Below, piece after piece: positions 4,169-45,689 of a stretch of 53,855 bases of DNA. The stretch lies in NCBI GenBank assembly GCA_044892505.1, contig CM097882.1:524716146-524770000 (forward strand), in the 5' to 3' direction. The DNA comes from Schmidtea nova. Its lineage: Eukaryota. The notes under the pieces are model-generated. The model made no database searches, was not told the origin of the DNA, and was given only the letters and a program-made list of their open reading frames with translations. The position numbers and the translations under genes were made by a program. How positions within the stretch are numbered: the stretch's first letter is position 1; every line of letters starts with the position of its first letter.

Positions 4169-4520
4169 CTTCCAGATCTTTCTTCGTCCACCACGAAGGT
4201 TCTAACAACTCTGAAAGTAATTGAACCAACAATAAATTGTTGCTGTAGATGGGCACTCTTGTTGGTAAACAGCTTTAGTTCAGAAAGAACCTCTTCTCTA
4301 TTCTTTCCTTTCAGAAAGAGAAAGCGAATAACACTACGGTATTGAATAGTTTCCAAAGGCATTTTTCGAATGTTCGCAAAAATATATTTAAACAATAATG
4401 GATTATTAAAACAAAATACATTTTCTTTACCTATATATGTTGAAGTTTAAATATGTCTGTATCAATTTTTTTACTATTATTATTTCTATATTAGTCTCAC
4501 GACTTATTGGGCGCACCACG
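4169..4520 (-). mobile_element. Truncated mariner (one TIR plus transposase N-terminus)
   Basis: TIR TTAGTCTCACGACTTATTGGGCGCACCACG followed by TA. Minus strand encodes MPLETIQYRSVIRFLFLKGK..VVDEERSGR. Near-identical to 24790-25138. Confidence 0.85.
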
Positions 4521-11829: not shown

Positions 11830-11849
11830 TAACATTCTCACAATTTATT

Positions 11850-17136: not shown

Positions 17137-17373
17137 TTTTGGAATTTTTATTTGGAAGCATCATTAATTTGATATTAATTCGCGACAAGATTTTTTAATC
17201 TAAACTCAACAATCAATTAATGGTGAATTAAGTTTATTTTATACTCTATTTATATTTTTGTAGATAAAATCATGTCCGTTTTCAATTGAAAAATGGATGA
17301 ATTGTACCCAAAACTAATGACCCACTTTTCTTATTGTACAACAGACATTTTACTATTCAAAATCTGAGTGTTA

Positions 17374-24206: not shown

Positions 24207-25138
24207 CGTGGTGCGCCCAATAAGTCGTGAGACTAAAATAGAAAGACTTAAGATATCAACACAAAACTTTGTATTTAGAACAAGCATGGTAAATAGGCAT
24301 CATTTCTCAAAATAATTTCCTTCTGCACTGACACAATTTTCCCAGTGAATAATGAGGTTTTTGAAGGCGTTTTTGAAAGATTCTGGAGGCTTTTCTCCCA
24401 GAAAACTCTCCACGACTGCTCTCAAATCATGTTTGTTGGCAAACACCTGGCCCCGCAGATGCTTCTTGAGATGGTTAAACAGGAAAAAATCGGAGGGAGC
24501 CAAATCGAGGCTGTATGGTGGATAGGGAAGCAAATTAATCCCGCAACGCTCAATTTTGGCCATGGAAACGCTACTGGTATGGATGGGAGCATTATCGTGT
24601 AAAAAATAGAGATCACACACCCTGCTCTTGCGTCGTGCCGTCCCTGCTTGCTGCACGATGTTGGAGAGTATGCACAGTGCCTTTGCTCACATTTAGACGG
24701 GTTTTGAGCTCTCTCGTCGTTATTTTTCTCTCGTTTTGCACGATTGTCTGCAGCTTTTGCGTTATTTTTTCTTCAATTACTGAGGGTCTTCCAGATCTTT
24801 CTTCGTCTACCACGGAGGTTCTACCACTCTGAAAGTAATTGAACCAACGATAAATTGTTGCTGTGGGTGAGCACTCTTGTTGGTAAACAGCTTTTAGTTC
24901 AGAAAGAACCTCTTCTCTATTTTTCCTTTCAGAAAGAGAAAGCGAATAACGCTACGGTATTGAATAGTTTCCAGAGGCATTTTTCGAATGTTCGCAAAAA
25001 TATACTTAAGCAATAATGGATTATTAAAACAAAATACATTTTCTCTACCTATATATGTTGAAGTTTAAATATGTCTGTATCAATATTTTTACAATTATTA
25101 TTTCTATATTAGTCTCACGACTTAGTGGGCGCACCACG
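24207..25138 (-). mobile_element. Internally deleted mariner (932 bp)
   Basis: 30-bp TIRs CGTGGTGCGCCCAATAAGTCGTGAGACTAA with one mismatch, TA flanks. The N-terminal HTH region is joined near 24655 directly to HDNAP..PYSLDLAPSDF. Confidence 0.92.
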
Positions 25139-27435
25139 TATACTGAAAACTGCATTTGTGTGATTTTCCTACTCTTAGACACAATTTCTTTCAATTTTAC
25201 AAAGTTTTCTTAATCAATCTCTACAAATATTTCACGTTTTTGACTGTCAAAACACTTGTTCTGCTGGACAAAAACTCTCGGATTAGGTTATATATTGTGA
25301 CTCTTGAAAAAGTATGTCTTCAATCTTTTCACTAATTTCTTTCTTTTCTGCTTTATTTAAAAATTAAAAATTGATTCACGTATTCCATTGCATCAGACAT
25401 TCTTTTAAAAATCTCCGAATGACTAAAATTAAATATTAATACATAAAAGAATTATAGATTTATATCTTTTTAAATGTCTTATTTCAAATATAAAACATTT
25501 TTTGCTAACTTTATTTCTTTGCGAGCCTAAGCACTTTTTGACCTTATCACTTACAAGTATAATTGGAATTTTTTATATTTTTATCATGGTTATTAAATAG
25601 TGAAATGTGCGTTATTTGGCTAACAAAGAAATTACTTATCCCTGAAGCAATGAGTCATCATTATGAATCATTGATCTGACATAAAAGGAGTCAGGTTACA
25701 AGTTGATGCATCATACTCTTTGGTATAACTAATAACCTTTGTTCTACAGAGGTTCAAAAGGGTTATGTCAAAATGTCCATGAGTCATCATTATTGAAATA
25801 AATACTTATTAAAAATTTTCCAAGTCGAAACAAAGACCCGGCTCAACAGCTTTAACTAAAGGTCTTACGAAAAAGATCTATAGTGTTTTGGAATTCTAAT
25901 ACTTATTACAGAAAAATGTTTTGCAGGTTGCTTTCGGTGGCCTTAAATGGGTCCTTTTTTAAAATCGTTGTTTTGGCGCCATATATTTTAAATATTTAGT
26001 AAGTTTAAACAAAGAACTTTTTTCAAATTTTTTTCTAAGTCAGAACTAAGATCCTCTAACAAAGTGATTTTTAATTTTTAATTTTTAAATCAGAGACACC
26101 TCTAAATAAAGAACCTTTCCAAGTTTTTCCAATTCCGTTTAACAAAGAAATTTTTCGTAAACTTTTTCGAAGTCATGGCAAAGACAGCATGAAGCAAATG
26201 TCATATTAAAATTATTTTTAGTGTTTTGGAATAATGAAAAACCCTTTAGACTTTTATCTCTAAAAGTATTTTTTGATAATATCATTGCTTTGGCCGCAAA
26301 TTGGTTTTGAAGTCTTAGTTAACAATGCAATAGTATTTCACATGTATTGCACTTGGATTTAGATTAATAAAAAAAGATACAATATTACATTTATTTCTAG
26401 CTATTACAAATTGACATCAATAAATATATTTGCACGAACAAAAGTTCTTATTGGTGAATATTATTTGCATCAACCTTGAACCCTCGGATATTAATGGTTA
26501 AATACCATGATTCTTTTTTTAACTTCATCTCTCAGAATGTATCTCAGTATGCTACATAGTGTTCATCGAAAAATACATGAGAGTCAACTGGATATTTTGA
26601 TTGATTTTGTTTTATGCTCTTTTTTGAATGATTGTCATTATTTTCATTCTTCACTATATTACAAAGTTCGCATTCCATCTTTTCATCATCACTCACTTCG
26701 TTAATATTTAATGCATGTTCTGATATTTGAAGGACCTTTTACTTAAAACAAAAAAAATAATTCTTTAAGAAAACAAATTTTATAATAACAATCTAGCGGA
26801 TGAGCCTCCGGCCGATCTCTAACATCCTCGTGAATATGAGGCTAGATTTCGATATCGGGTTGACAGTTCGTTGGATAGTTCGGGAAAATCAACACCAAAC
26901 TTGTGAGCCAACACTGATTACCTGCATCGCAACAAGCTTTTTGTAATAAATTCTTAAAATTTTCGGAAAGAATTTCGATTATTCGCAAAAATTTCTCAAA
27001 TTTTCAAGAGTGTTTTAAAATACTGAAAATGGCATCTCTATTTATACCATTTTCAGAACATTTAATTTAATTGATGTAGTAAAACAAATGCTTCTAGAAT
27101 GTTCTTTTTATTTTATTTAATTTAATTTAAAAGTTAAATATTTATTTTTAGTAAAATAAGTTTATTTATGCATACAATTTTATTCTTTTCTTTAATAAAT
27201 TTTATTTTTATCCGAATTTTATATTTTACATAAATTTTAACTACTTTAATTTTAATTTTTACAATTTACCTTTACATTTTTTAAATTTATCTTAATTAAA
27301 TAATTAAAAATATCTGAATTTATAAATTTACTTAATTCTTTAATGAGTTTTTTTGGTAATTTGTTTTGTTTGTGATTTTCGCGGATGCTTCTTGCATTTG
27401 TTCAATTTGAATTTTTACTTTTGTTTTAATTAATT

Positions 27436-27536: not shown

Positions 27537-28663
27537 TTGTTTATACTTCTTGCGTGGTCTCTACATATTATGTCCACTCTCGCTTCCAAATTAATGGGAT
27601 TCAGCTTTTGCCCAACAGTATGTTTGACTCAGAAATTTACTAAGTATTTTTCGTATGTCATTTATATAACTGGTTAATAAAAAAAATTTCATGACCTTCC
27701 TTTAGTAAAATTTGAAAAATTTTCCCAAAATTTTTCTTATTATAATTGGCAAGAATAAACTTTATTCCAATATCTTTTTTCGTGACCATCTTTTTGTAAA
27801 TTTTCAAAAATTTATCTTTGCACTTTTTTTTAATTTTAGCTTATACTTGATCGGAATTTTACTTATCGCTTTATGATTTATATTTATTTAACTTCACGTT
27901 AATATTTATGTTTTAAATCCCAATAAAAATTTATTGAAAATTTTGCCAAAGTTTGAATTAAGCATAAATCTTATTCCAATAAACAAACAATTACTGGCCT
28001 GACATGAATATCTCTGGTAACTAGAAAGTCGGTATCAAGTTTCTCCATGAAATCTCCACTAAGTCTGTACTCTATTTACTCTAGATACAAAAATGAGGAT
28101 GAAATCGATGGAAAGCACGGAAAAAATTACTTCCATTGAAATATTGAAATTGATAAATTTATTTTCGATTTTTCAAAATTTTGAAAATAAAACCGTCTAA
28201 TTGACAAAATTTCATCGATTGAAAAATATTTTAACTTTTTCTTGTTTTTTATGTTGTTTTTCAGAATTTTAAGAGTAATTACTTTTAGTGTTTTCCTCTT
28301 TCATCATTTCAATTTTTTTATTTTTTCCAGTTGGAGGTCTTGCAAAATAATAGCTTGTTTTGGTCGGAAAAAAGTTAAATAATTCTTTAGCAATATTATC
28401 AGAATGCCATTAAAACATTAAGATTATACGGCATTTTAATAATAGTTTTTTCTGCATAATAATTTTAGACTTGGGTTTCTCAAATTAGGTACGAGTAGGT
28501 AGATGTGAGTTCCATAAATCACTTTCAATTATACCCCCCAGTTTTCGACAAGTTTCGCGCGTTTGATTGATAATTTATCGAAATAGTATTCATTTTAAAG
28601 TGCAAATATATTTCAAAAAGTGCTATTATTGATTTTAAAGTGCTAAAAATTGCTAAGAAGTAG

Positions 28664-29789
28664 TGTTGGATGATGAAGGTAAGCCCATCAATACATTCCT
28701 CCTATCAGAAAATTATAGTGTGGGGGGCAACAAATACAGAGTGAACATTTATGCAGAGCCTGTCGATAAGACCAATATTCAAAAAGAAACAGAACCCAAT
28801 ATCAATCAGTACCCAGTGCACAATCAATCCAAGCACCAACCAGGATATCAACATCCATTTGATATTTGATTGACATTTGATATTTAATATTTGATCGACA
28901 TTTGATATTTAATATTTGATCGACATTTGATATTATTATTGGGAATGTTATTTCTTGTATATATTTCTAGTGTAAATATTTGACATTGGATATTATTATT
29001 TTAGTTGGGAATGCGATATATTAGTTTAGTTCTTTTAAATGTATAAAATTATTATTAATATTTATGTACTTTTTATTCTTTTAAATGTATATAATTTAAA
29101 AAATTATTATTAATATTTATGTACTTTTTAATGAAATATTTTATTATTTTAATTATACAGATATTAGAATCAACATAATTGTAGGAAATTATTTTAATTA
29201 TTTTGAAGCGGCAGCGAGTCAATATTAGAATCAACATAATTGTAGGAAATTATTTTAATTATTTTGAAGCGGCAGCGAGTCAACATTGTTCCAATAGCGA
29301 AATTATTTGAAATTATTTTAATTGTTGTAATTATTTCAACAACGAGTACGAAAAACTTTAGTATTTAAAGAAGGGAAAATTTCTAAAACTTGCCCACAAT
29401 TTTTGAAATTCAATTTCAATAAAATTTAGCGAAACAAACTTTCTCAAAGGGTAATCCTGAGAGAACTTAAAATATACGAACAGCACAAAAACGTTCAACA
29501 CGAAATTGTTATCGTTAAAATAAACATAATACATTCACTAAATAACAAGCACACAATAGGACACGCAAAAAATATCCTTTAAATAAAACAGTGTGAAAAT
29601 TTGAAAGCGTAATTGATAGTTTTTGATTTGAAAGTGTAATTGGTAACTTTTAGAGTAATTGAGAACTTTTGATTCTTAAATTTGGTAAATTTTATTATTG
29701 AATAAATTTTTCAAAAGACTTGATCTTATTTTTATATACGATAGTCTACACCAGTGCACGTTGAGATCTAAAAATCTTGGACCTCAACA
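28664..29789 (+). repeat. 5' LTR (1,126 bp)
   Basis: Direct repeat of 41513-42638. Internal 25-bp (28872-28934) and 2 x 61-bp (29161-29282) tandem repeats. Confidence 0.97.
29355..29425 (+). promoter_or_regulatory. Possible LTR TATA-like box and polyadenylation signal (U3/R region)
   Basis: TATTTAAA near 29362 and AATAAA near 29418; positional inference only. Confidence 0.3.
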
Positions 29790-29791
29790 TT

Positions 29792-29809
29792 TGGTGCCGC
29801 GAACCGGGA
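29792..29809 (+). promoter_or_regulatory. tRNA primer-binding site (best guess tRNA-Phe)
   Basis: TGGTGCCGCGAACCGGGA, 2 nt after the LTR. It begins with TGG (complement of CCA) and resembles invertebrate tRNA-Phe 3' ends. Confidence 0.8.
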
Positions 29810-30038
29810 CAATAAAATATCAGAATATCAATTGGGGGATAGGAATTGCGATCAGAGGGATATTGTAATATATATCGGGAAAATATATTTATCTAAATAT
29901 TATTGACCAAAACAGAAATTCAAAGATATACAAACATTTAAGGTTAACAATAACAAAATAGGTAAAAAGATAAAGAAAGTCATTATAGATAAGCCACCTG
30001 AAATATTGCACAAGTTGAGAAAAAAGATAATATACAAA

Positions 30039-33000
30039 ATGAGTAATAATAGTACAGGCAGCAGCAATAGTGGAAGTAACAGTAATACATACAACATAAG
30101 CAGCCATAATTTTATAAAAACATTACCAATAGAATCATATAAGGGAGACCCTGAAAAGTTCGACGACTTTTTTGCCGAAATCGCACAGTATGCAGAGGCT
30201 TGCGGATGGAAAACAAATGAATTAAAACAACGAATCCCATTATACTTAAAGGGATACGCATTACAGGCATACAATAATTTAGCATGTAAAGGCATTAATT
30301 ATCAAGAGTTAGTTACAAACCTTAGAAAAGAAATAGTAATAGATCGAGACTTACAAAAAATAAAATTTCAAAAATTTAGAAGTAGATACCAAGGAGCCAG
30401 AGAATCAGTAGGTGAATATATATACACGATAACAGAATTAGCAAAAAAGGCATTTGGTGCCGGAGATCACACTAGTAAATTAATTGAGGATCAGTTTTGG
30501 AACGGCATCCAAAAATACTTATACAAAGCATTAATTACAATTGAGTATGAAGACTTAAATGAGTTAGTTCAAAAGGCAAAACGCATTGAAGCAATACAAA
30601 GATATAGATTTAAACCAGAGGTAGATGCTGTAGAAGTTGAAAAACAACCCGAGGTAAAACCTGAGTTGAGAAATAAGGATGACAGTATTCCCTGGGAAGA
30701 AATGAAACAATTATACTTGAATTTTGTTAATAATAGAAGAAAATTTAGTCCTAATAGAAGCCAATCACCTGAAAACAGGGGAAGGTTTAATAGTCCAGGA
30801 AATAAAAATTTCGATAATAGAAATAGAAATAATTTTAAAGATAGCTATCAAAGAAACAATAATAGAGACAGTTTTAGAGACAATCGTTTTGATAGAGATA
30901 ATGATAGAGACAACAGAGATAATTTTAGAGATAGTCGTTCTGGTTATAACAGAAACAGTTACAGTGGATATAATAAAAATAATAGAGATAGTCGCTTCGA
31001 ATATAATAGAAGAGATAATAGATATAGAGATAATTCGAGAAATAGGCAAGATAGCCCAGTGAGGCGAAATACTTATAATAATGATGGTAGAGATAAAGTG
31101 AATTTTAATGGACAAATAAAATGTTATAATTGCCAAAAGTATGGCCACCTAGCAAAGGTATGTAATAAACCACGAGCAGATTCACCAATAAGAGTAAGAT
31201 TTAAAAATGAGCCTGAGATAAAACAAGTAAATAGTGCTGAGCTCGAATCAGCAAATAAAGAAATAAATATATTAAGAGAGGAACTAAAAGAATTTAAAAC
31301 TCAATATGGAAGACTTATTGAGAGAAAACTTGAAATGTCTATAAATGAATTTAGCACCTTTACAAATGAAGTAGATATTGATAATGATGAGTTAAAGGAA
31401 ATTAGAGAAGCAGATGAAATATTTCTTACAAAAGAAAATAGACAAAAAGAATTAATAGAGGAATTTAAAGAGGTATTGCATAAGCAACCGTTTGATGACA
31501 ATGAAACATTAAGAGTAATCAATAAAATACAGGTTAATGGGATTGATTTAGAGAGACTTAGAAATTTAATACCAATGATGGTAAAGAGACAAAATCTAAC
31601 GAGAGTATTTGAATTAGAAATAGAAATAAAGGAGATGCTGAAATGTTATGGAGAATATATAAGAAAAAATGAAAAATTGCATGAAACACTAAATGTAACG
31701 ATTGAATCAAATGATAATTATTTTTTTAGTATTAAACAAAAGATGCATCCTTGCACTAAAGTGAGCAAATTAAAACGAATGGTAAGAGCCAAATGGCCAG
31801 GAACCATAGGAGAGAAAGATGTAATAAAATTATATTTTAACGGAATAGAATTATTAAGTGATGAGTACTTAATCGATTATGGGATAAACCCAGTAAGTGA
31901 TAATATTGTGGTAGCCACAGTAGAAAAACAAATGATCAATGAAATAATGACGCCAGTACCGTCGGTTGAGTTGAGTATAAATGAAGAAAACGATTTTGAT
32001 AGATTATTTAGGCTATGGGATAAATCACCTAGCGAAACAAAGAAATCAGTAATGGATGAAGAAATTATATTTAAACCTATAGATGAAAAGTATAGTAACT
32101 TACAAGAAACAATAGAAAGAATAGCTGAGGAAGCAAAAACAAAAGATGCAGAAACATCAAAACGAGGTAGAGGAAGACCTCGAAAATCAGAAATAATAGA
32201 AAAATCGGAGAATAGGAAGACAGCAGAACGATTAAGAGAGATTGCAAATCAACATAAACATGAACAACCAGAGTATCAAGACGATAATAATGACGTAAAC
32301 AAAATAAAAGAAGTAATAAAAGCAATGAATATTAAGCTATTTCCAGAAACAAAGCCAACAGTACTTATTGAAAATATAACTGAAAGGATGATGTTAATTA
32401 AAAAGGATACTAAAGAACTAGCTACAGAGGAAGCAAATGAAAAAACAGTGTTAAAAATCATGTTTAATACAGGGATAGATAAAGATAAAATAATAACGGC
32501 CATGGCATACTTGGCCGCAAGATATAAAAAGCTCATAAAAGAAAATCCAAAAGAGCAATTAGAAAAAGTAGCAACAATGATGTTTAAAAGATTGAAAGTA
32601 GAGGCAATACCATGGATAAAAAAGAAAGGAGGATGGAAAGTATTATATGATAAAGATACGACGAATAAAGAGAGTGATACAGATGAGGTAATAAAACAAT
32701 TAATAAAGAAAGCAACAGTAAAACCAAAGACAGAGAGTAAATCGATAACCTCCATAGTAATAGTCATTATCACTTTGTTATTAGATTTAATCAAGGGAGG
32801 CAATGCAATGGTAGCATATGATTGTCAAAATCCAAAGTGGGGACAAAAATACTCACTGCTAGATGTTGAAAATTGCCCTGAAGCAAATCCAACTAAATTA
32901 ATCATGTCAGAGCCTCAAATATTCCATGTTTATCAAGAATCAGACTTTATTCATACAGAGGCCAAAGAGTGCATAGTAAAGTATCAGGAGGAAGCATATA

Positions 33001-36000
33001 TATGTCATGTTGGGGCAAGAACAGTGTTAAAACCTACGTGGACACCCGAAGCAGTAATATTGTCACCAATAGAGTGTGAAGATGCATTTAAAACAAAGAA
33101 AGTAAAATATAGCGGTCATAAAGGAATAGAATTAGAAGCAAGGATAGGGGCAAAAATGAGACAAGATGTAAATGTCGTGGGATGGACATCAAAAGGAGGA
33201 TATTGTGAAGGAGGAGAATATACAATATGGGGCGAAAAACTGAGTAATGTTGTAGTAAGGAGACACTACATGGTAGAACTGAGAAAGTTCAAAGCATCCT
33301 TCGACAGCAGCTCAAAGAAAATGATGATATACAAATTTTGTACATTAGAAGAATCTTATTGCGATACAGGAGAATCAATGCTAATATACAAAATAGATAA
33401 ATACGATTGTCAGTTAACAAAATTAAAATCATTAAAATTTAGGGAAATCAAAGGAAAACAGTTCACAGAAGTAGACTCAAAAAGGGTGAGAGATCAAAAA
33501 AGGAAAACAACAATTGTACAAGAAAAAGATACACCAACAATATATATGTCAGAATCTGAAAACGAAGCAATGAGGTTTGTTAGTAAAAGGAAAAGTGTAA
33601 AATGTGGTAAGGAAATAATACAAACTAATTATGAAGGGATATACATAAGCAAAGAGGAAGTCAAAGATGCAAAACAAAAAGTAAATAAATTCGACGTCAA
33701 ACTTGCATCATACTTCAACAATAAAATCGATTTTTTCTATCATAACCAACTAGTACAATTAGATAAAGTATATCAATCAACAATTATGAGCGATTGCAAA
33801 CTCAACAGAGAAATATTGAGGACAAAAATGGCAGTGGCGGTAACAAACCCAGATTTAATGGCACCAATAATCTTCTCAGAAGAAGGAACATTTGCAAGGA
33901 TAGTAGGAGAAGTGATACAGACATTTCAATGTAAACCTGTTAGTGTATCGTTAGCAACAAATAATCAGTGCACTAATGAATTACCGGTAATATATAAAGG
34001 AGAAAGGGTATACCTTCAACCAATTACTAGAATATTAACAGAAAAAACATATATACCGAGAAAAATAGAAAAATGCACTAACCTATTAGACCCATTATAC
34101 AAAATAAATGACGAAATGTGGATATCTATGTCAGATAGAAAAGAGGCAATGAAACCACTCAAATTAGAACTCATAGAGCTAGAAAAAAGATTAGAGTTTA
34201 AAGAAATCAACGATATGGACAGTAATGGTATATATACGAGAGAAGCTATAGAAAGTGCAAGAAAACACATGCTATTTCCAAACGAAAAAGAAAGAGTACT
34301 TTCAATAATGGTTAACAGAGTTATCGAAGGAAGTTACGGAGGAAATTACAACTTTGATGTGTTATTATCAAAAGAATACTTCAAAAAAGTAGCATATAAA
34401 GTACTATATAGCATATGGGGATACTTTGCAGTCCTTGGAAACATGTTTTCTACAATCTTAGGTATATATTATACGGTTGCATTACTAAAAATGATATGTT
34501 CTTCTCTAGTATCACTGAGACAGCTAAAACAAGTATTTGGAAATTCATATAAATTATTAGCATGTTTGTGCCCATTTATAGCTAAATATCTTATTACGGC
34601 GAAACACGACAAGGAAATACGTTTAATAAAAGTCCAAAGGAATGAAGAAAGGCAATTACTGGTAGATGATGAAAACGATGAGGAAATAATTAAAGCGCAT
34701 ATATCACATGAAGGAAATGTACCACAACAAGGACTATATGAGAACCAAAGAGAACAACTAAAAGAGCTACAAGAAAATATAGAAATCAAAATTCCTAGAG
34801 AAAACAAGAATTGTCACTGTGAACCTAAAAAGATATATGGTTGTTATAGCTTAGAAGTCGAAACAATGGAACGATTAGATGCAGCAAACGAAGCAAGACC
34901 AAGACTTAGAATAATTATAAACAATATAATCATAAATGCATTAGTAGATACAGGAGCAGCAACATCCTTAATTAGAGAAGATCAACTGACAGATGATCAA
35001 AAAAGAAATATTATGAGCACAACGGATAAAGTAGTATCGTTATCAGCACATCGTATTCCACTAAAGGGAGACATAGAACTAATAGTCGAAACACCAGAAC
35101 AGGTAATAAACCACATATTTAAAGTGGTGCAAGAATGTAATAGCATATGTATATTGGGAATCGATATACTCAACAAGTTAGAAAATTGCATTATAGATTT
35201 AACAGATAATACGATAAAGAGAAAAGCAATTAAACATAAATCCAAGTTCACAGAAGTTGTTGCATTAGAAGCATTTGAATTGGAATATGAATGCGATCAT
35301 ATAATTCCCTTAAAAGTTAACATCAAAAGTGAGGACACTTTTATTTTTGAGCCAGAAACGGCAATTATACAAAATCAGAATATAATGCTAACCAATGAAT
35401 GCGTAATTCCGAGAAAGGGAATAATACCATTGAGAATAGCAAATTATGAAAAAAGTAATGTTAAAATACACAAAGGTACGAAATTGGGAAAATTATTCAA
35501 AGGTGAATTAGAAAAAACGTACGAAGTCAGTGAAATAAGCGTGATGAATAATAACGGCAAGGGAGTAGTCGAACCTAGTAAGATAAATAATATAAAATCA
35601 TATGACAAAGTAAAAATTAATAATGAATACTTAACAATAACACAACAAGCACAACTACAAACATTGATAGATAAATATAGTGATGTTTTTGCAAAACACG
35701 AATTTGATCTAGGAGATACCGATATAATCAAACATGTAATAGATACAGGTAATGCGAGACCAATAAAACAAAGACCATACAGCGTACCATACAAGTTAAG
35801 AGAGGAAATAAAACGACAAATCAAAGAACTAAACGATGCAGGTGTAATAAAACAGAGTTTTTCACAGTGGGCATCACCCATTGTACCCGTTAAAAAGAAA
35901 GACGGAGAAATAAGAATGTGCATTGACTATCGTAAATTAAATGATGTAACAGTAAAAGACTCATACCCATTCCCAAAAGCACAAGAGCAATACGATAAAC

Positions 36001-39000
36001 TTAGGGATGCTAAGTATTTTTCAGTTATTGACGCAAATAAGGGATATGTGCAAATTCAAATGGAAGAAGGGGATGCGGAAAAAACAGCATTTGTTATCGA
36101 GGATGGTTTATATGAGTACACACGATTACCTTTCGGGTTAACTAACGCACCAGCTACATTTCAGCGCCTAATGAACACAATATTAGTAAATGTACAACAT
36201 TGCGCAGTTTACATGGATGATATACTAATATCATCAAAAACATTTGAGGAACACTTAAAAGATATAACAAATGTACTCGAGAGACTAAGAAAAGCAAAAA
36301 TTAAAATTAAACCAACTAAGTGTAAATGGGCAGAACCTTCGGCGTTATTTCTAGGGCATATAGTTACAGTAGAAGGGATAAAACCAAATCCAGAAAAAAT
36401 AGAAGTTGTAAAGAAATTCCCAATACCAAAAACAGTACAACAAGTACAAGGGTTTTTAGGTCTAACAGGGTACTATCGTAAATTCATACAAGATTATGCA
36501 AAGATAGCATCACCGATAATAGAACTAACAAAGGGAATTAGAACAAAAGGAGAATGCAAAAATGTGTTAATAGTACAAGAAATTAACAGCAAAGTTAACA
36601 AGATACAAAAGAAGTGGACAAAGGAACACCAAGAAGCATTCAATAAACTAAAAGAAAGATTGATAACAGCACCAGTGTTAAGATATCCAGATTTCGAAAA
36701 ACAGTTTATAGTAATGACGGATGCCAGCGGGAAAGCCGTAGGAGCAGTCTTAGGCCAAGAAGAAGAAAAAGGGAAAGATTACGTAATAGCATATGCCAGT
36801 AAAACATTAAAAGGAGCACAGCTGAGGTATTCAACAATAGAAAAAGAATGTTACGCAATAGTATTCGCCCTAAAACAATTCAAACCATACATATATGGGA
36901 CTGAAGTGATAATAAGAACTGACCATAAACCATTAGAAGGCTTATGGAAACATAAAGATACATCAAGTAGATTACTTAAATGGGCAATGAAAATACAAGA
37001 CATGCACCTAAAAATTATATATAAACCAGGTAGAATAAATAAAAACGCAGATGCACTATCAAGAATACCAGAATTAGGAGCACTTGAAATATTTGCACTA
37101 GTAGCAGAAAAACCAATCGATATATATGAGGAACAGATGAAAGACCCAGAGATCAGTAAAGTAAAAAATGAAATCAGAAAAGAAAACAATTCAAAGTATA
37201 AAATATCAAAGAAATTAGTAGTAATAGAAGATTTCAATGGTAAGCAACTAATAGTAGTACCTCAGAAATTAAGACAAATACTCCTACTACAATATCACGA
37301 TGGAGCATTAGGAGGTCACTTATCATCTAGAAAGACAGCAAGTAGATTATTACAAAAATATTACTGGGAAGAATTAAAGAAAGATGTTAAGAGATGGTGT
37401 AACGCGTGTACAATATGTGCAACAAGAAAAAATACAGGTACAAAAACAAAAGCGCCGTTACATCCCATTCCAGCAACGACATCACCAATGGAACTATGTG
37501 CAATGGATTTTCTATGTAAATTACCTACTACAATTAATGGGAATAAACATATACTAGTATTTAGTGATTATTTTACTAGATGGGCAGAAGCATTTCCAAC
37601 AAAAGACGAAACAGCAGAAACAGTTGCTAAATTGCTTATAGAAAAAATTATTTTCAAGATAGGCACACCCAAAAGATTATTAACAGATAAAGGAACAAAT
37701 TTTACTAGTGAATTAATAAAACGAGTAGCTAATATTTTTAACATGCAAAAGATCAACACAACAGCGTATCACCCTCAAACGGATGGACTAGTAGAAAGAT
37801 TTAATGGGACATTACTAAGCAGACTAGCTGTTTTTGTAGGAAAAAATCAAAATGATTGGGACGAATACATAAGTCAATGCACATACATTCATAATATCAC
37901 TCCAAACGAAACAACAGGGAATTCACCGTATTATTTAATGTTTTTAAGAGAACCAGCAACACCAATAGATACAATATTTGAACCTCGAGTATCACAATAT
38001 TTAGATGCACCAGATTATGTCACATTAATGCAGGAAAAACTGCAAGAAGTGTATAAAGTAGCCAATCTAAAAGTCAAATATAGACAAGAACAGTACAAAG
38101 CCGACTACGACAAAAATAGTAAACCACACAACTTTAAAGTAGGTGATAAGGTTAGACTTATGTCACCACAAGTAGGAAAGGGAAAGACAACAAAACTAGC
38201 AAGACCATATAAAGGTCCATATGAGGTAGTAAAAGTAATAAATGAGAATTTACATTTACAAAAGCATAAAAACGAGGATCCAATAGTAGTACATGTCAAC
38301 AGATGCAAGTTGGCGGAAGCCGAGGTCACGATAGATAAACCTCACAAGTATAATCTAAGATCTCATAACAAACTAATAATATCGGCTATCTTCTTAACAA
38401 TCATAACAATTGTTGGCTCAACCGAAACAATAGAATTTGACAAAGTATTAATAAAAATATCAACAAACGAAGTTAGAGCATTTATCATAAATAGAGGAGT
38501 AATTGATTTATACATGCAAACAACGAATGGGAAAAACCCAAAGATGATAAAAGGAAAAGACGACAGAACAACCAACGAAATCGAAAGAGGAAACTATATT
38601 AATTTCACAAAACTAACACCTAATACAATATACAAAATCTGCATACAGAGAAACACAGATACAACAACATGGAGATGCAAAAAAATAAAAACAGAACAAT
38701 TACCCAAGAATATAACAAAAAACCATAACATAACAAAAACACTCGATAGAATAAAAAGCACAACAACGACATCAGATAATATACTAAATACCACACCACA
38801 TACAAACGAAATAACAACAAGCACTGGAATAGCCAAATTCCAAAAACAATACAATGCCAAAAAACAAAAACAAGAACCTATCAAAATAAGGCAAGGAAGA
38901 CCAATAGTGATACATAACTTAGAGGAACTACAAGCATTTCGTAAAGAGGATAAAAAGCCACATTGGCCTTATTATGTCATCACAACATCAATAATATCAT

Positions 39001-39155
39001 TAGTAGTTTTAGCTTTAATAACTAGCGTACAAATTTATAAAAAGTACAAGTGGAAAAGGCAGCGGTATCGGAGCCGACTGGTCAGAAATGTACCAGGGCA
39101 TTTCCATTTGGGCAAATATATACCAGGTGAATATACAAAATCCACATTGGTATAA
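30039..39155 (+). CDS. Single Gag-accessory-Env-Pol-FN3 polyprotein (open from 30006; first ATG at 30039)
   Basis: More than 9 kb uninterrupted ORF; domains are listed separately. Confidence 0.95.
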   Translation: MSNNSTGSSNSGSNSNTYNISSHNFIKTLPIESYKGDPEKFDDFFAEIAQYAEACGWKTNELKQRIPLYLKGYALQAYNNLACKGINYQELVTNLRKEIVIDRDLQKIKFQKFRSRYQGARESVGEYIYTITELAKKAFGAGDHTSKLIEDQFWNGIQKYLYKALITIEYEDLNELVQKAKRIEAIQRYRFKPEVDAVEVEKQPEVKPELRNKDDSIPWEEMKQLYLNFVNNRRKFSPNRSQSPENRGRFNSPGNKNFDNRNRNNFKDSYQRNNNRDSFRDNRFDRDNDRDNRDNFRDSRSGYNRNSYSGYNKNNRDSRFEYNRRDNRYRDNSRNRQDSPVRRNTYNNDGRDKVNFNGQIKCYNCQKYGHLAKVCNKPRADSPIRVRFKNEPEIKQVNSAELESANKEINILREELKEFKTQYGRLIERKLEMSINEFSTFTNEVDIDNDELKEIREADEIFLTKENRQKELIEEFKEVLHKQPFDDNETLRVINKIQVNGIDLERLRNLIPMMVKRQNLTRVFELEIEIKEMLKCYGEYIRKNEKLHETLNVTIESNDNYFFSIKQKMHPCTKVSKLKRMVRAKWPGTIGEKDVIKLYFNGIELLSDEYLIDYGINPVSDNIVVATVEKQMINEIMTPVPSVELSINEENDFDRLFRLWDKSPSETKKSVMDEEIIFKPIDEKYSNLQETIERIAEEAKTKDAETSKRGRGRPRKSEIIEKSENRKTAERLREIANQHKHEQPEYQDDNNDVNKIKEVIKAMNIKLFPETKPTVLIENITERMMLIKKDTKELATEEANEKTVLKIMFNTGIDKDKIITAMAYLAARYKKLIKENPKEQLEKVATMMFKRLKVEAIPWIKKKGGWKVLYDKDTTNKESDTDEVIKQLIKKATVKPKTESKSITSIVIVIITLLLDLIKGGNAMVAYDCQNPKWGQKYSLLDVENCPEANPTKLIMSEPQIFHVYQESDFIHTEAKECIVKYQEEAYICHVGARTVLKPTWTPEAVILSPIECEDAFKTKKVKYSGHKGIELEARIGAKMRQDVNVVGWTSKGGYCEGGEYTIWGEKLSNVVVRRHYMVELRKFKASFDSSSKKMMIYKFCTLEESYCDTGESMLIYKIDKYDCQLTKLKSLKFREIKGKQFTEVDSKRVRDQKRKTTIVQEKDTPTIYMSESENEAMRFVSKRKSVKCGKEIIQTNYEGIYISKEEVKDAKQKVNKFDVKLASYFNNKIDFFYHNQLVQLDKVYQSTIMSDCKLNREILRTKMAVAVTNPDLMAPIIFSEEGTFARIVGEVIQTFQCKPVSVSLATNNQCTNELPVIYKGERVYLQPITRILTEKTYIPRKIEKCTNLLDPLYKINDEMWISMSDRKEAMKPLKLELIELEKRLEFKEINDMDSNGIYTREAIESARKHMLFPNEKERVLSIMVNRVIEGSYGGNYNFDVLLSKEYFKKVAYKVLYSIWGYFAVLGNMFSTILGIYYTVALLKMICSSLVSLRQLKQVFGNSYKLLACLCPFIAKYLITAKHDKEIRLIKVQRNEERQLLVDDENDEEIIKAHISHEGNVPQQGLYENQREQLKELQENIEIKIPRENKNCHCEPKKIYGCYSLEVETMERLDAANEARPRLRIIINNIIINALVDTGAATSLIREDQLTDDQKRNIMSTTDKVVSLSAHRIPLKGDIELIVETPEQVINHIFKVVQECNSICILGIDILNKLENCIIDLTDNTIKRKAIKHKSKFTEVVALEAFELEYECDHIIPLKVNIKSEDTFIFEPETAIIQNQNIMLTNECVIPRKGIIPLRIANYEKSNVKIHKGTKLGKLFKGELEKTYEVSEISVMNNNGKGVVEPSKINNIKSYDKVKINNEYLTITQQAQLQTLIDKYSDVFAKHEFDLGDTDIIKHVIDTGNARPIKQRPYSVPYKLREEIKRQIKELNDAGVIKQSFSQWASPIVPVKKKDGEIRMCIDYRKLNDVTVKDSYPFPKAQEQYDKLRDAKYFSVIDANKGYVQIQMEEGDAEKTAFVIEDGLYEYTRLPFGLTNAPATFQRLMNTILVNVQHCAVYMDDILISSKTFEEHLKDITNVLERLRKAKIKIKPTKCKWAEPSALFLGHIVTVEGIKPNPEKIEVVKKFPIPKTVQQVQGFLGLTGYYRKFIQDYAKIASPIIELTKGIRTKGECKNVLIVQEINSKVNKIQKKWTKEHQEAFNKLKERLITAPVLRYPDFEKQFIVMTDASGKAVGAVLGQEEEKGKDYVIAYASKTLKGAQLRYSTIEKECYAIVFALKQFKPYIYGTEVIIRTDHKPLEGLWKHKDTSSRLLKWAMKIQDMHLKIIYKPGRINKNADALSRIPELGALEIFALVAEKPIDIYEEQMKDPEISKVKNEIRKENNSKYKISKKLVVIEDFNGKQLIVVPQKLRQILLLQYHDGALGGHLSSRKTASRLLQKYYWEELKKDVKRWCNACTICATRKNTGTKTKAPLHPIPATTSPMELCAMDFLCKLPTTINGNKHILVFSDYFTRWAEAFPTKDETAETVAKLLIEKIIFKIGTPKRLLTDKGTNFTSELIKRVANIFNMQKINTTAYHPQTDGLVERFNGTLLSRLAVFVGKNQNDWDEYISQCTYIHNITPNETTGNSPYYLMFLREPATPIDTIFEPRVSQYLDAPDYVTLMQEKLQEVYKVANLKVKYRQEQYKADYDKNSKPHNFKVGDKVRLMSPQVGKGKTTKLARPYKGPYEVVKVINENLHLQKHKNEDPIVVHVNRCKLAEAEVTIDKPHKYNLRSHNKLIISAIFLTIITIVGSTETIEFDKVLIKISTNEVRAFIINRGVIDLYMQTTNGKNPKMIKGKDDRTTNEIERGNYINFTKLTPNTIYKICIQRNTDTTTWRCKKIKTEQLPKNITKNHNITKTLDRIKSTTTTSDNILNTTPHTNEITTSTGIAKFQKQYNAKKQKQEPIKIRQGRPIVIHNLEELQAFRKEDKKPHWPYYVITTSIISLVVLALITSVQIYKKYKWKRQRYRSRLVRNVPGHFHLGKYIPGEYTKSTLV
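30129..31163 (+). other. Gag: capsid-like region, R/D/N-rich linker and CCHC zinc knuckle
   Basis: IESYKGDPEKFDDFF..LYLKGYALQAY..QGARESVGEY (retrotransposon gag pattern); CYNCQKYGHLAKVC at 31122-31163. Confidence 0.9.
31689..31925 (+). other. Ubiquitin-like domain within the polyprotein
   Basis: TKVSKLKRMV..IKLYFNGIELLSDEYLIDYGI aligns with ubiquitin [30 protein letters not shown]. Confidence 0.7.
32160..32186 (+). other. AT-hook motif
   Basis: KRGRGRPRK. Confidence 0.75.
32290..32650 (+). other. Bcl-2-like domain
   Basis: BH1-like MFNTGIDKDKIITAMAY (compare LFRDGVNWGRIVAFF) and BH2-like IPWIKKKGGWKVLY (compare TWIQDNGGWDAFVELY) at Bcl-2-like spacing, followed by a hydrophobic tail. Confidence 0.6.
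32742..34600 (+). other. Internal signal peptide plus chuvirus-like envelope/fusion glycoprotein with C-terminal TM
   Basis: SITSIVIVIITLLLDLIKGGNA/MVAYDC..YSLLDVENC, 14 ectodomain Cys, LPVIYKGERVYLQPITRIL, GIYTREAIE, and hydrophobic segments at 34400-34590. Confidence 0.8.
34900..35210 (+). other. Retropepsin aspartic protease
   Basis: INALVDTGAATSLI and ICILGIDIL. Confidence 0.92.
35680..37075 (+). other. Reverse transcriptase and RNase H
   Basis: LPFGLTNAPATFQR and YMDD (36210-36221); RNase H TDASGKAVGAVL, EKECYAIV and TDHKPL. Confidence 0.97.
37290..38320 (+). other. Integrase (HHCC, DD35E, GPY/F)
   Basis: YHDGALGGH..CNACTIC, AMDF, TDKGTNF, GLVERFN and YKGPYEV. Confidence 0.96.
38365..39155 (+). 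other. C-terminal type I membrane protein: signal peptide, FN3-like domain, Thr-rich stalk, TM, basic tail
   Basis: LIISAIFLTIITIVGS; KLTPNTIYKICIQ (FN3 LxPxTxY motif); sequons NFT, NIT x2 and NTT; TM WPYYVITTSIISLVVLALITSVQIY; tail KKYKWKRQRYRSR. Confidence 0.7.
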
Positions 39156-39618
39156 TACGTTTTGGTCAATAATAATAATTAAAATCATATATATTCGTAT
39201 TTATATAGCGTATAAGGTTAAACCGACAATACGCCTTAAACAAAAAACTTTATCCTTTATTTTTAGAAAAGATTGCACGAGCAAAACAAAGCAAGTTCTA
39301 ACAAACTCCGAAAACCCAATCAATCTCGTGAATTCTACACACCAATCAAATCATTGCGACAACCATTCAAAAATCTCAAGAAATACAATCATCTCTTTTT
39401 TAAACTATCACAACAAACAATCAAAAAACCCTACTAATCATCTCCATACAAAATACCCAATCAATCTCGTCAATTCTATAAACCAATCGAATCGTTACGA
39501 CAATTACCCATATATCTCAATATATTCAATTATATCTCTGTTAAACTGTCAAAATCCTAGTAATCATCTCTCAAATCAATATCTCAAGAAATCAATTCAA
39601 TACCAATCAAAAACAAAG

Positions 39619-41718
39619 ATGAATCAAAATCAACCTCATTTCAATCACTCAAGAACCTACCAGAAATACACTTGTTTTATAAACAAACTCAACATGAGTT
39701 TTTACAAAAATCTACAGAACAAGATATGTACGGATGGAACCCCAATTACAATTCGCAGTTTCCCAAATCAAATATGCATCCCAAATGACATGAAAGTCGA
39801 AATAGAAGAACGGGAAATGCATCTGATAAAATTCAATGAGGCCCGAAGAGTGAAACTCAGAGAGCTTATTGGAACCTTCGACAAATACCAAAACGTCGAC
39901 AAAGAAGTTGCAGAAAACAAGAGAATCCCTCACAGACTAATATTCCACATGACAAAAACAGAAGTTGCAATAAGTCAAAATAAAATCCCGTTAATTGTCA
40001 CAAGCAACTGTTCAGCAGTTATCAAGTTAATAAGAAAAGACAGAAGCATGTCAAACGATTTCAATGAGCTGACAGTGCAGATGAACAACCTACCATGTGT
40101 GATAGCAATCGAAGTGCTATATATCCCGACAATCCCAAATCCGTTCATAAAATTAAACCCAATACATTCAATCCTACAAATAAATGAAGATATGATCAAT
40201 CAGAAGATATCATTCACGAATCAAGAGTTAACGACAGAAGAAAGGCATTCATTAACTGTAATGGTGGATATAAAAGTAGTACAAGATATAAACAAAAATC
40301 TCAGACCAGTGGAAATTTGTATCAGAAGCAGAAAAGGAGCAATTCTGTATAACAAATTCATCACCCCAAGAACGAAAGTAGAAAAATTCTACACGGAAAA
40401 AACTAAAGCTACAAAAGAAAACATAATTGGAAATGAAGACGAATATAAAGCCTTAAATGAAATTCGAAACATTCTCTATGGAAAGATCATAATTGGATTC
40501 AACATCATAGATAAGTTAAAACTATTGACGATAGATCTGGACAACATTATGGGCATAAGAGAAATGGCACAGGATCGATTCATGTGTTCTTTTGTAAAAA
40601 ACGTGGCCCCACCAAAAATAAAAATATCAAATTTGGCTTACCAGGTAATCAACTACCATAAAAGTTAACATAAAGATAAAAAGTTAAATGATATATTGAG
40701 ACAACCAGAACCATTCTCAACAAAGATCACCACAATGCTATTAAAAGTTATCTACGATATCACAGAAAATAAATGGGAAGAAGTTGTCAAATGGGATTCC
40801 GCAACACTTCTTAAAAAGAAACAAGTAAATGGAGAAGAACAACTAGAAACAATATTCGAAAACGAAACAGAGAGCGAAGCAGAAGGTGAGATAGAAAGTG
40901 AATATGAAGATGGAGAAGGCATGGAGCCGTCCCATAGAGAATCAACAAAAACCAATCATTACAAACCAAAAAAGTCATTCATGGAAGAGCTCATGGACAG
41001 TGACGACGATGAACTCATGATCATAAAAGAAGAAATACCACTTATCGCCCCAACTAGAGAAATCAAAGCAGAACCAAAAATTCAAAATATTCTATATGAA
41101 AGAATGGACGAATGTGACATAGATGATGAATATTTCTCAGCAGATGAAAACATAGAAGAACCTTCAACCAGCAGTAACGACATCAAAATGGAAGAAGATA
41201 GTGAAGAACCATCAACAAGTAATAAATACAACATAATGGAAGAGGATATCGGACCAGAACCAAACGTTGAAATGTTAGCCGACTGGACAGAACCAGAAGA
41301 ATTAGACTTCATAATAGACAAAGACAAAAAGTATGTCTCAGAAAAAGATCTCTGCACTCATTTTGGAAGACAAATTGAGCACGAGGAGACGATAAACCTT
41401 GCGATAAAAAATGGATTTCGAAAAACAACAATTCAAATAAAAGAGAAAAGAATTGATTTAATATTGTGTGACAAGGGTAATGAGGACATTACTTTGACGG
41501 CCCGGGGAGGAATGTTGGATGATGAAGGTAAGCCCATCAATACATTCCTCCTATCAGAAAATTATAGTGTGGGGGGCAACAAATACAGAGTGAACATTTA
41601 TGCAGAGCCTGTCGATAAGACCAATATTCAAAAAGAAACAGAACCCAATATCAATCAGTACCCAGTGCACAATCAATCCAAGCACCAACCAGGATATCAA
41701 CATCCATTTGATATTTGA
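39619..41718 (+). CDS. Accessory ORF2: unknown N-terminal domain, DEDDh (ISG20/REX4-like) pseudo-exonuclease, acidic region; one in-frame TAA at 40666-40668
   Basis: ORFs 39088-40668 and 40696-41718 are in the same frame. VMVDIKVV..PVEICIRSRKGAILYNKFITP..EIRNILYGKIIIGFNI follows the ISG20/REX4 pattern. Start codon uncertain (39619 or 39694). Confidence 0.6.
41504..41512 (+). promoter_or_regulatory. Polypurine tract
   Basis: GGGGAGGAA immediately before the 3' LTR TG. Confidence 0.85.
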
Positions 41719-42638
41719 TTGACATTTGATATTTAATATTTGATCGACATTTGATATTTAATATTTGATCGACATTTGATATTATTATTGGGAATGTTAT
41801 TTCTTGTATATATTTCTAGTGTAAATATTTGACATTGGATATTATTATTTTAGTTGGGAATGCGATATATTAGTTTAGTTCTTTTAAATGTATAAAATTA
41901 TTATTAATATTTATGTACTTTTTATTCTTTTAAATGTATATAATTTAAAAAATTATTATTAATATTTATGTACTTTTTAATGAAATATTTTATTATTTTA
42001 ATTATACAGATATTAGAATCAACATAATTGTAGGAAATTATTTTAATTATTTTGAAGCGGCAGCGAGTCAATATTAGAATCAACATAATTGTAGGAAATT
42101 ATTTTAATTATTTTGAAGCGGCAGCGAGTCAACATTGTTCCAATAGCGAAATTATTTGAAATTATTTTAATTGTTGTAATTATTTCAACAACGAGTACGA
42201 AAAACTTTAGTATTTAAAGAAGGGAAAATTTCTAAAACTTGCCCACAATTTTTGAAATTCAATTTCAATAAAATTTAGCGAAACAAACTTTCTCAAAGGG
42301 TAATCCTGAGAGAACTTAAAATATACGAACAGCACAAAAACGTTCAACACGAAATTGTTATCGTTAAAATAAACATAATACATTCACTAAATAACAAGCA
42401 CACAATAGGACACGCAAAAAATATCCTTTAAATAAAACAGTGTGAAAATTTGAAAGCGTAATTGATAGTTTTTGATTTGAAAGTGTAATTGGTAACTTTT
42501 AGAGTAATTGAGAACTTTTGATTCTTAAATTTGGTAAATTTTATTATTGAATAAATTTTTCAAAAGACTTGATCTTATTTTTATATACGATAGTCTACAC
42601 CAGTGCACGTTGAGATCTAAAAATCTTGGACCTCAACA
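41513..42638 (+). repeat. 3' LTR (1,126 bp)
   Basis: Direct repeat of the 5' LTR; no mismatch noticed by eye. Confidence 0.97.
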
Positions 42639-42644
42639 GTAGCA

Positions 42645-43262: not shown

Positions 43263-45689
43263 AATCCATATTGCCATATGGCAACGCTAAGAAGTTATAC
43301 TGCTATTAGGATGTCAATTGTTAACATGATTGAAGTTATTGCAGTTTCTCCAATAATTCCACAATATCAGCAAAAATAATAAAAAGGCCATGAAAATTAG
43401 ATTTTAGCAATTTATTATGGAAATAAATTTTATTGTGATTTATGAGAATCTTCCAAACAATCGATACAAATACCAATTTTACATTTTTTACACATTGTTC
43501 TCATTATGGATTTACAGTTTTTGCCAGCATCGTCATTTTTTGTTATCCGGTATTTTTCCTACGAAAAATGATCTCTTCCATCTGATCTTACTTCTTCTGA
43601 TATCATTTTCATGATGGAGCTTTTCGGGGATAAAGATCTCCCTGCACCTTTTACCGCTTTTCCATATTGGCAAAGTTAAGTTAGTACAATTTCTCTTCGA
43701 AATCAAAATAGTGGAATTTCAAAACTTCCAAATTTCTGTTTAGGCATCCATGCATTATGAATGCATATATTTATTAGCCATGAAAAAAAGAGGTCAATAC
43801 CATATTTATTGCGTTTGTTTATACGATTTTTGGCAACATTTTCTTCCATTCTATCGATTCCACCCATGTATTTATTATATTCCCCCATACCTTATGGTCG
43901 TAACACTCCGATAATGTTTTATGTGCTAGAGAGTATCTTTTGACGGTCAAAAGTTGCGCAACGCTATTGCAATTCGAAACAATTGAGACATTATAATTAT
44001 CTACCCATTTCACAACAACTACTGCATCGTCTTTACAAATTGTATACTGATAAACTCCTCTATCATTCCTTTTAAATTCTTTATTTGAAGGTAGAATATT
44101 ATTTTTGAGAATTCTGTTCTCTCTTATTGTTTCCGTTGCGTGGTGTATTCGTTTTTTTGAATAACATAATAAATTCAGGTTGGTAAATAAATTATCAAAA
44201 TATAAATGATAGGGCAATGACTGCTTGTTATTGGGCAAAGAATTCAGCATCGTGAGTAAAGAAGTAACAGTTTTCCTAAAACTTTTTAAGTATCTATCGT
44301 TTGAAAATAAATTTCGAAATCCACAAGATATCCATTTACAGTGTTTAAACACCATACTTTATAGGCTAACCTAATCGGTTGTCCATGAATGTATTGCTTG
44401 CATCCGTGTTTACCGAAATACTTCACAATTTATTCGTAAAATGACAAATTCTTTTCGGGAATATAGTGTTTGTGAATGTTCGTTTTTACCATATTCCCCA
44501 AAGGTCGTAATTTTCCCATTTTGTCGCATTTATTTGGATTGGAGTGATCGCAAAAATGAAAAAAAGTCTTAAAATCTGTTCAAATCGATTTCTCCGCATA
44601 CTTCATTACTAGCTCATTGCCAATATCGTTATTCTTATCCCAATAAATTCTCTTTCCTGACAATTTATCATTAACGCTGAGAATCAATATTGTCACGAAA
44701 ATTTTAATTTCTTTGGAAGTTATTGCAGGATCTACACAATTATAAAATTGCGCGTATTCGTTTGAAGAACTCGTTAAAAAATAAATAATTTCTTCACTGA
44801 GAATTAATTCAAAGATATTTGAATAAGATGTGCTTGTAAAATCATGAACATGGACTGTAAAATTATCTTACACTGTAGCTTCAAATTGTTCTTCGATCCA
44901 TGCCCTTTCTTCATTTTCCTTCTAGGCAAATTCTTTTTCTATTCGATGAGTCCTTACAGCTTTTGCTTCTGATAACAACTGTATCCCATTCGAATTATCA
45001 TACTCACGCTCAACTTCATCTCCCAGAATCTTCATCCATAAGAACGGCTACCTCGAGTGGAGATAAAAAAACTGCCTTTATTGGTTTGTCGAAGTTTTCA
45101 TTTCTTTCCTCGTTTTCTGAAATCATGTCTAATGCTTTTATGGCAGTAAATCCATCCGCAAATCGAATACCCATGCTTCTAAAATAAAATTTTTTTACAA
45201 TATAAAATTGAATGGTCATAATAAATGATCCTAAATCTAAATAATATGTAATGATGGCGAAGTAATATTATTCTTTCGTTTTAGAAATAGCGTTGGGAAT
45301 AATTTAGCGTTGCCATTGGCAACACAAAGAATTCCGTCATGTTTCCTAAAAAAGTATAGTGGAGAGTAAAACTAATAACATTCATTTATAGTATGAAGGA
45401 TATAGAATATAATACTTAAGAATAAATTATTATTATTATTATTGCGAAATATGAGAAATAGTTACTTACCTCGCGTAATCATACATATCGCCGTCCATCA
45501 TAAAAAACACTAAAATAAACTAACTATTATTTCTCACAAAACTTCATTCGAACACATTTAACTGATTGTTACATCTCGACTGAGATTTATGTACATGCAA
45601 ACACTTCCCGGCACGATTTGCTTAAACAAAAAAGTGCAAAGTTGCAAATGACGATTCAATGCGCTATGATACCAAATGACAACAATTGG
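43263..45689 (-). mobile_element. Degenerate piggyBac (PGBD3-like) transposon; ends approximate
   Basis: Minus-strand YHLYFDNLFTN, TIRENR, VVVKWVDNYNV and YNKYMGGIDRM. Inverted TTGCCATATGGCAACGCTAA motifs at 43271 and 45304. TTAA at 45690. Confidence 0.75.

Follow-up and report, generated by a model that had tools for sequence, protein, structure and literature searches.

A stretch of 53,855 nucleotides from Schmidtea nova (GenBank assembly GCA_044892505.1, contig CM097882.1, positions 524,716,146 to 524,770,000 of the forward strand; hereafter the window) holds a Ty3/gypsy retrotransposon of 13,975 bp (28664-42638), into which a class III, chuvirus-like envelope glycoprotein (env), as identified by profile match and predicted fold, is inserted in frame before pol. 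From our analysis we suggest, with a probability of about 0.8, that this is a young flatworm-type GAG-ENV-POL gypsy element, whose polyprotein likely threads the membrane of the endoplasmic reticulum (ER) and releases a class III env predicted to fuse particles with cells. The layout itself is already known: judged by its sequence, the element is an errantivirus of the GAG-ENV-POL order, Burro-like though small, and a near relative of Smed_errantivirus_3. The initial annotation, made from the letters of the window, had proposed an independent env capture at an atypical position; this novelty fails because Burro and flatworm GAG-ENV-POL elements of the same order have been published (PMC6431247, PMC13524379).

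The element and its envelope

Open reading frame 1 (ORF1) of the element reads in the order Gag, ubiquitin-like domain (Ubl), Bcl-2-fold domain, Env, protease (PR), reverse transcriptase (RT), RNase H (RH), integrase (IN) and second membrane protein. The features, with long terminal repeats written as LTR and transmembrane segments as TM, are:

28660..28663 (+), left copy of the target-site duplication GTAG, intact, 4 bp; right copy at 42639-42642
28664..29789 (+), 5' LTR, 1,126 bp, TGTTG...CAACA ends, zero mismatches to the 3' LTR
29792..29809 (+), primer-binding-site-like 18-mer, starting with TGG, behind the 5' LTR
29907..39155 (+), ORF1, measured from stop to stop as 3,082 codons, with its first Met at 30039
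30099..31163 (+), Gag, with a part resembling capsid and a zinc knuckle of the CCHC type (31122-31163); Retrotrans_gag E 0.022, weak
31689..31934 (+), ubiquitin/SUMO-like domain (predicted fold); PF11976 E 0.027
32271..32660 (+), Bcl-2-fold domain with BH1-/BH2-like motifs (predicted fold); PF00452 E 2e-6
32742..32807 (+), internal env signal peptide, hydropathy 2.12, in the same place in relatives; predicted cleavage before Met at 32808
32808..34403 (+), ectodomain of env, predicted as class III (gB-type, chuvirus-like); 14 Cys, and neither a usable sequon nor an R-x-K/R-R site
34404..34517 (+), env membrane-proximal and TM segment, from hydropathy; a long helix in the model
34890..35183 (+), aspartic protease (DTG); PF00077 (RVP) E 7.7e-7
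35889..37001 (+), RT (YMDD) and RNase H, Ty3/gypsy type; Pfam RVT_1 and RNase H
37257..38309 (+), integrase (HHCC, core, GPY region); Pfam rve
38361..39152 (+), predicted membrane protein, the second in ORF1, made up of signal peptide, FN3-like part (38412-38711), S/T-rich part (38712-38831), TM (38964-39041), basic tail
39022..41718 (+), ORF2, first Met considered at 39619; N-terminal domain without assignment, exonuclease-like fold, acidic tail
41504..41512 (+), polypurine tract, preceding the 3' LTR
41513..42638 (+), 3' LTR, 1,126 bp

The element has been copied recently, since its LTRs are identical and its target-site duplication is intact. ORF1 is free of stops and frameshifts over all 3,082 codons, which bears out the earlier observation that env stands upstream of pol in one uninterrupted frame. 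All that is expected of Ty3/gypsy elements (Metaviridae) was found, namely TG...CA LTRs, a target-site duplication, a primer-binding-site-like sequence, a polypurine tract, the PR-RT-RH-IN order and an RT of the Ty3 type. The latter had also been recognised initially, and is confirmed by Pfam RVT_1 and by solved structures, of which 4ol8 (E 3e-79) and 7q5b, Ty3 Gag-Pol and the best named match (E 2.6e-78), are closest, with the match to Ty3 Gag-Pol far above those to caulimoviral and retroviral RTs; the BEL/Pao families of Pfam gave zero matches in a scan of the element.

The insert had been read as a chuvirus-like glycoprotein from its motifs, and these stand where they were described: a signal peptide beginning with SITSIV (32742), AYDC (32814), SLLDV..C (32853), 14 ectodomain cysteines and a C-terminal TM, with hydrophobic peaks in ORF1 at aa 943-971 (signal) and aa 1509-1537 (TM). 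The profile search for viral glycoprotein homology that had been proposed as a check gave PF24664, Monjiviricetes_fusion, at E 3.7e-87 (293 bits, against a Pfam cut-off of 27). A fold model, built from a 116-row alignment with a mean predicted local distance difference test (pLDDT) score of 90.7, has herpesvirus gB as its closest solved fold (best E 5e-14), so that the suggested comparison with class III fusogens, done here with a monomer model, agrees with the assignment; the PDB matches at E <= 0.001 number 115, and are all gB among the matches listed. Predicted viral folds closest to the env are mostly glycoproteins of chu-like viruses (best E 2.4e-41, template-modelling score (TM-score) up to 0.66). 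A PDB sequence search with the env returned chance matches only, therefore its kinship with gB is visible by fold alone. It is because of PF24664, the gB and chu-like folds, the Ty3 RT and the PR-RT-RH-IN order that we regard this as a gypsy element with a class III, chuvirus-like env in frame ahead of its pol.

The primer-binding-site-like 18-mer is common to sister families too. Its 15-mer has 3,028 genome matches, of which 2,411 share one strand and 617 lie on the opposite one, an excess for which a tandem array is a possible explanation. In all 12 loci scanned among these matches the site stands behind an LTR-like end, 11 of them with a gag match, and none of the 12 contains a tRNA gene.

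Relatives, age and selection

The giant gypsy element Burro of planarians was described in 2019 by Arkhipova and Yushenova with Gag, a PF11976 Ubl, BCL2 and an env in frame before the protease, and was named there the first in-frame env between gag and pol (PMC6431247; this and the other papers compared are used for the portions covered by our analysis). With Burro/GYPSM1 our element shares Gag-CCHC, the Ubi2/SUMO-like PF11976 domain, the BCL2-like domain, the in-frame env, PR-RT-RH-IN and the single polyprotein (PMC6431247). Burro measures >30 kb and 4,873 aa, whereas the element has 14 kb and 3,082 aa, and the MATH, BIR, ankyrin and dUTPase domains of Burro have no Pfam match up to E 1 in ORF1; the size and accessory domains of Burro are not found here, therefore the element is Burro-like and not Burro. 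The env of Burro was described as resembling the Env of gypsy and the fusion proteins of mononegaviruses, and may or may not belong to the same fusogen class. PF07253, an F-type env such as Burro might have in this slot, has no match in the genome, the controls being also without match.

Chary and Hayashi (PMC13524379) catalogued, for Nematoda, Bryozoa and Platyhelminthes, gypsy elements that have the order GAG-ENV-POL and a chuvirus-like env of the gB type, and described a mosquito chuvirus-like glycoprotein beside gypsy POL; in their account GAG-ENV-POL elements are not monophyletic, and how errantiviruses of the gB type enter cells is called unknown. Their Platyhelminthes C1a errantiviruses share with our element Ty3/gypsy POL, HSV/gB-type env, the GAG-ENV-POL order and multi-copy occurrence, and two marks of the HSV/gB type, an env between gag and pol and a gB-like ectodomain between signal peptide and TM, are present here. 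Compared with the env domain I-II row of Smed_errantivirus_3, ~175/246 positions agree (~70%, counted by eye), which by itself would point to a planarian host and exceeds the 31-64% in 12 pairwise rows among six Schmidtea elements of that paper, and with ~30% divergence the element would therefore be a sister family. The rows of PMC13524379 list no tRNA type or LTRs, whereas here LTRs and a primer-binding-site-like sequence are clear.

An ENV before POL in a metavirus is likewise shared by nematode endogenous retroviruses (Sacco et al. 2022, doi 10.1099/jgv.0.001739, as cited in PMC13524379). Their host phylum is other than that of the element. These retroviruses reportedly have a continuous gag-env-pro-pol frame. 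The Anakin elements (Dezordi et al., PMC7642597) have a BEL/Pao backbone and a Chuviridae glycoprotein whose family is, according to PMC13524379, homologous. The RT of our element is Ty3-like, which leaves it outside BEL/Pao; quite possibly its env was captured independently of that in Anakin.

Word-indexed protein searches found 11 relatives, seven of which are long polyproteins with env and protease, and a full HMMER search gave 1,215 matches at E <= 0.001. In the relative polyproteins scanned env precedes the protease, and the same domain order is kept at 25-39% env identity. Our env is only ~22-29% identical to stand-alone glycoproteins; identity rises to 31-41% with the closer polyproteins of retroelements, and to 72-73% with sister families. 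In a quick, midpoint-rooted tree of 63 rows, for which 40 of 102 stand-alone glycoproteins were used, the window env falls into one 23-row retroelement clade (Shimodaira-Hasegawa-like approximate likelihood ratio test, SH-aLRT, 99; stem 0.72) together with families D and E, all 14 retroelement polyproteins sampled and six fragments, and the 40 stand-alone glycoproteins fall outside it. Since the env groups with similar polyproteins in a single clade, its capture is, by this tree, old and shared by the clade, and the glycoprotein tree asked for initially thus speaks against a capture by this element of its own. Several related polyproteins (P0005, P0006, P0008, P0010, P0011, P0017) have two to four protease-like repeats, and C2H2 fingers occur in some.

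In the genome, 73/73 scored env matches show 99-100% identity; in 67 of them env is free of stops, and 26 lie inside frames of at least 3,054 codons; the 73 are the best of 3,821 candidates and biased to intact copies. Spacing between Bcl-2 and protease matches has env length in 123 of 129 pairs, one being 373 bp short and five longer, and 21 of 150 Bcl-2 matches are unpaired. No env-only deletion occurs among the 129 pairs, a test to which derivatives also lacking protease are invisible.

Subfamilies (L063-L070 and L075-L076) have an ORF1 core nearly identical to that of the window element and unalike LTRs, and ORF2 identity between subfamilies is 63-79%. Synonymous distance to subfamily C is 0.075 in env versus 0.23-0.30 in capsid, RT and IN, and because this distance is patchy along ORF1 we read the subfamilies as apparently recombining and sharing env; env-sharing recombining subfamilies were not found in the portions of the literature covered. 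The env ectodomain differs from that of subfamily C by 24 synonymous and two non-synonymous changes. Families D and E, with env 72-73% identical to the window, have an ORF1 of 2,992-2,993 aa with the same domain order. Between D and E the ratio of non-synonymous to synonymous divergence (dN/dS) is similarly low in env (0.049), capsid (0.029), RT (0.025) and IN (0.054), and reaches 0.18 in Ubl, 0.30 in Bcl-2 and 0.33 in the post-integrase part, at dS ~1 and with approximate domain bounds. Env dN/dS is 0.02-0.05 overall, and because it lies far below 1 the env is under strong purifying selection. The second membrane protein, by its 0.33 compared with 0.049, evidently evolves faster than env. The element is of value as a small and young case of the Burro-like layout, present in many copies, in which selection on env can be measured; no quantification of such selection was found in the parts of the literature covered.

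Proposed function and its alternatives

We base the proposed mechanism on the anatomy of ORF1 and on general knowledge of membrane polyproteins. Gag, Ubl and the Bcl-2-fold domain would be made and kept in the cytosol, after which the internal signal peptide would open translocation and be cut by signal peptidase before aa 968. The env ectodomain would then fold and form its disulphides in the ER lumen, and the env TM would stop transfer and return the chain to the cytosol, which requires a single crossing by its 38-residue stretch. The protease of the element may free the cytosolic PR, RT and IN, and the second signal and TM behind integrase may yield the small FN3-like membrane protein. In such a scheme the hydrophobic segments alternate, and Gag and Pol come out on the same side; the next hydrophobic stretch after the env TM peaks at only 1.1. 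Without splicing of the RNA, Env, Gag and Pol would be produced in the same quantity, particles might bud with env and move between cells, and the Bcl-2 fold might modulate host cell death.

A 6.9-kb D-type copy (G000:C1:40796200-40813100, minus strand, L099-L100) is without env and pol and keeps ORF2. It has Gag, Ubl, Bcl-2 and env signal fused in frame to the terminal TM and basic tail, and its junction is spanned by 40/40 scored matches at 96-100% (out of 125 candidates), the 5' parts varying from copy to copy. Seven of 20 plus-strand copies have an open ORF1 (981-1,001 codons) and five a 636-codon ORF2. In the seven open copies the ratio of non-synonymous to synonymous polymorphism (pN/pS) is 0.22 in capsid, 1.18 in Ubl and 1.12 in Bcl-2, so Ubl and Bcl-2 give no sign of constraint in these seven copies with few changes. 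The derivative probably forms a non-autonomous family that depends on mobilisation in trans.

Several observations count against the scheme proposed above. Since the derivative without env and pol has multiplied, env is dispensable in cis. Foldseek gives the env TM-scores of only ~0.4 to gB, with a root-mean-square deviation (rmsd) of ~10 Å; a single pass of the 38-residue hydrophobic stretch is an assumption; and the Ubl/Bcl-2 model comes from 16 related rows with a mean pLDDT of 59, mostly 70-89 within the domains. The env ectodomain also has 0 usable N-x-S/T sequons versus 2.65 expected (P ~0.07, 300 shuffles). The sole one in env, as had been noticed, is NPT at aa 994, and the lack of sequons, called odd at that time, is real but weak. 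The env clade has 39 sequons against 65 expected in 22 rows, three of them with none, and other glycoproteins 367 against 401 in 104 rows, none with zero (two rows were skipped as too short, and the rows are related to one another). We rejected sequon depletion as a special signal; a low count is a mild clade trait, and is therefore no argument against a luminal ectodomain.

The few glycan sites would also suit an env kept for an intracellular or direct cell-to-cell role, such as Gag anchoring, internal budding or fusion with a neighbour, with no free infectious particle. Gag and env joined in one chain are consistent with it, as is the derivative, in which Gag is still followed in frame by a signal and a terminal TM with basic tail, a fusion that suggests membrane anchoring by itself to matter. 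We nevertheless find this role unlikely: a 533-residue ectodomain with all its 14 cysteines is conserved nearly as well as RT, and this exceeds the needs of an anchor.

Much less probable, and contradicted by the evidence, is the idea that one element alone took up a chuvirus glycoprotein gene recently and independently, at a new position. The PF24664 match and the mostly chu-like best viral folds speak for it; against it, the stand-alone glycoproteins are more distant from our env than the closer polyproteins and far more than the sister families, the retroelement env form a single clade on a long stem, and relatives with the same order are published. Least probable of all, and contradicted by a dN/dS far below 1, is an env without function, carried along as a passenger or produced by misassembly, given dozens of dispersed near-identical copies, the purifying selection described above, and a frame that is shared with families D and E and with polyproteins from other sources. 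Entry of particles by the released class III env is thus the explanation that we prefer.

Accessory parts and other features of the window

The Ubl and Bcl-2-fold domains between Gag and env were absent from the initial annotation. In Gag itself zf-CCHC matches at aa 404-420 with E 0.0013, under the Pfam cut-off. The Ubl model (VIA-align) reaches Z 10-11 and rmsd ~2 Å over 70-77 residues. For the Bcl-2-fold model Z is 12.5 and rmsd 3.4 Å with 129 residues aligned, and the top 15 rows are all of the Bcl-2 family; for helical folds a Z of this size is close to the level that calls for caution, and the sequence evidence agrees with the assignment. The PF00452 match is under the cut-off in the window copy and over it in some other copies, and a Bcl-xL sequence matches the domain over 74 residues ungapped (E 0.05). 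A Bcl-2 family fold with BH1 and BH2 is thereby predicted in the element, and would tie it to the effect on stem-cell survival reported for Burro1, as cited in PMC13465017. Nine stronger Bcl-2 matches with short frames elsewhere in the genome (L143-L151) are likely host genes. Between Ubl and Bcl-2 lies an AT-hook-like KRGRGRPRK (32160-32190, E 0.11-0.14), and a similar GRP motif precedes env in several relatives.

The signal-to-TM unit after integrase had also been overlooked. It has four sequons, and its FN3-like assignment (Atlas 0.89, fn3 E 0.11) is a lead only. Families D and E have a comparable unit, and by eye so do the related polyproteins P0005 and P0009, while P0010 does not. The unit is a concrete candidate partner for env in entry. 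Herpesviruses pair gB with other glycoproteins. We may even suggest, as a rather improbable speculation, a two-protein entry machine encoded in one chain, with a conserved, glycan-poor class III fusogen and a fast-evolving, glycosylated FN3/mucin-like attachment protein, and with the env/pol-less derivative as a satellite in its particles.

ORF2 has no Pfam match, and a predicted DEDDh/REXO4-like (REXO4/ISG20-like) exonuclease fold at ~40200-40800 (Atlas RNase_T 0.93, 26/30 matches). Its acidic residues are, judged by the known motifs, presumably lost in part. In the window copy ORF2 is interrupted by a stop at 40666-40668; 13 of 30 loci match the context of this stop exactly, 12 of the 13 read sense, and ORF2 is open in most other copies. 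The acidic tail of ORF2 enters the 3' LTR (41513-41718), so that each LTR begins with a coding portion. Bdelloid Juno and Vesta similarly have an extra DEDD-fold ORF after pol, the DEDDy exonuclease ORF3, in which the catalytic residues are kept, in distinction from the REXO4/ISG20-like fold of our element (PMC5408684).

The main text of PMC13524379, as far as covered, has no mention of fibronectin, exonuclease, ubiquitin or a single ORF, and an FN3-like unit, an exonuclease-like ORF2 and an env/pol-less derivative were not found in the covered literature, the searches of which were not aimed at them. These extra parts are likely undescribed so far, and Sacco 2022, Lee 2026, Grohme 2018, Jurka 2007 or supplements may already hold them.

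Other mobile sequences lie around the element in the window. A 620-codon frame at 7897-9759 has a weak hAT dimerisation match (E 8e-4) and is likely a hAT transposase. Mariner/Tc1-type transposase fragments stand at 17526-18224 (+) and 11239-11844 (-), 56-nt inverted arms at 17370-17425 and 18600-18655, and a DDE_Tnp_1_7 transposase fragment at 43819-44358 (-, E 1e-7). Three 210-bp tandem copies occupy 16129-16758, and a dispersed 220-bp repeat is found at 4304-4523 and 24922-25141. A palindrome at 3480-3601 with 59-bp arms has related copies near 2400, 13040 and 22660, which are likely miniature inverted-repeat transposable elements.

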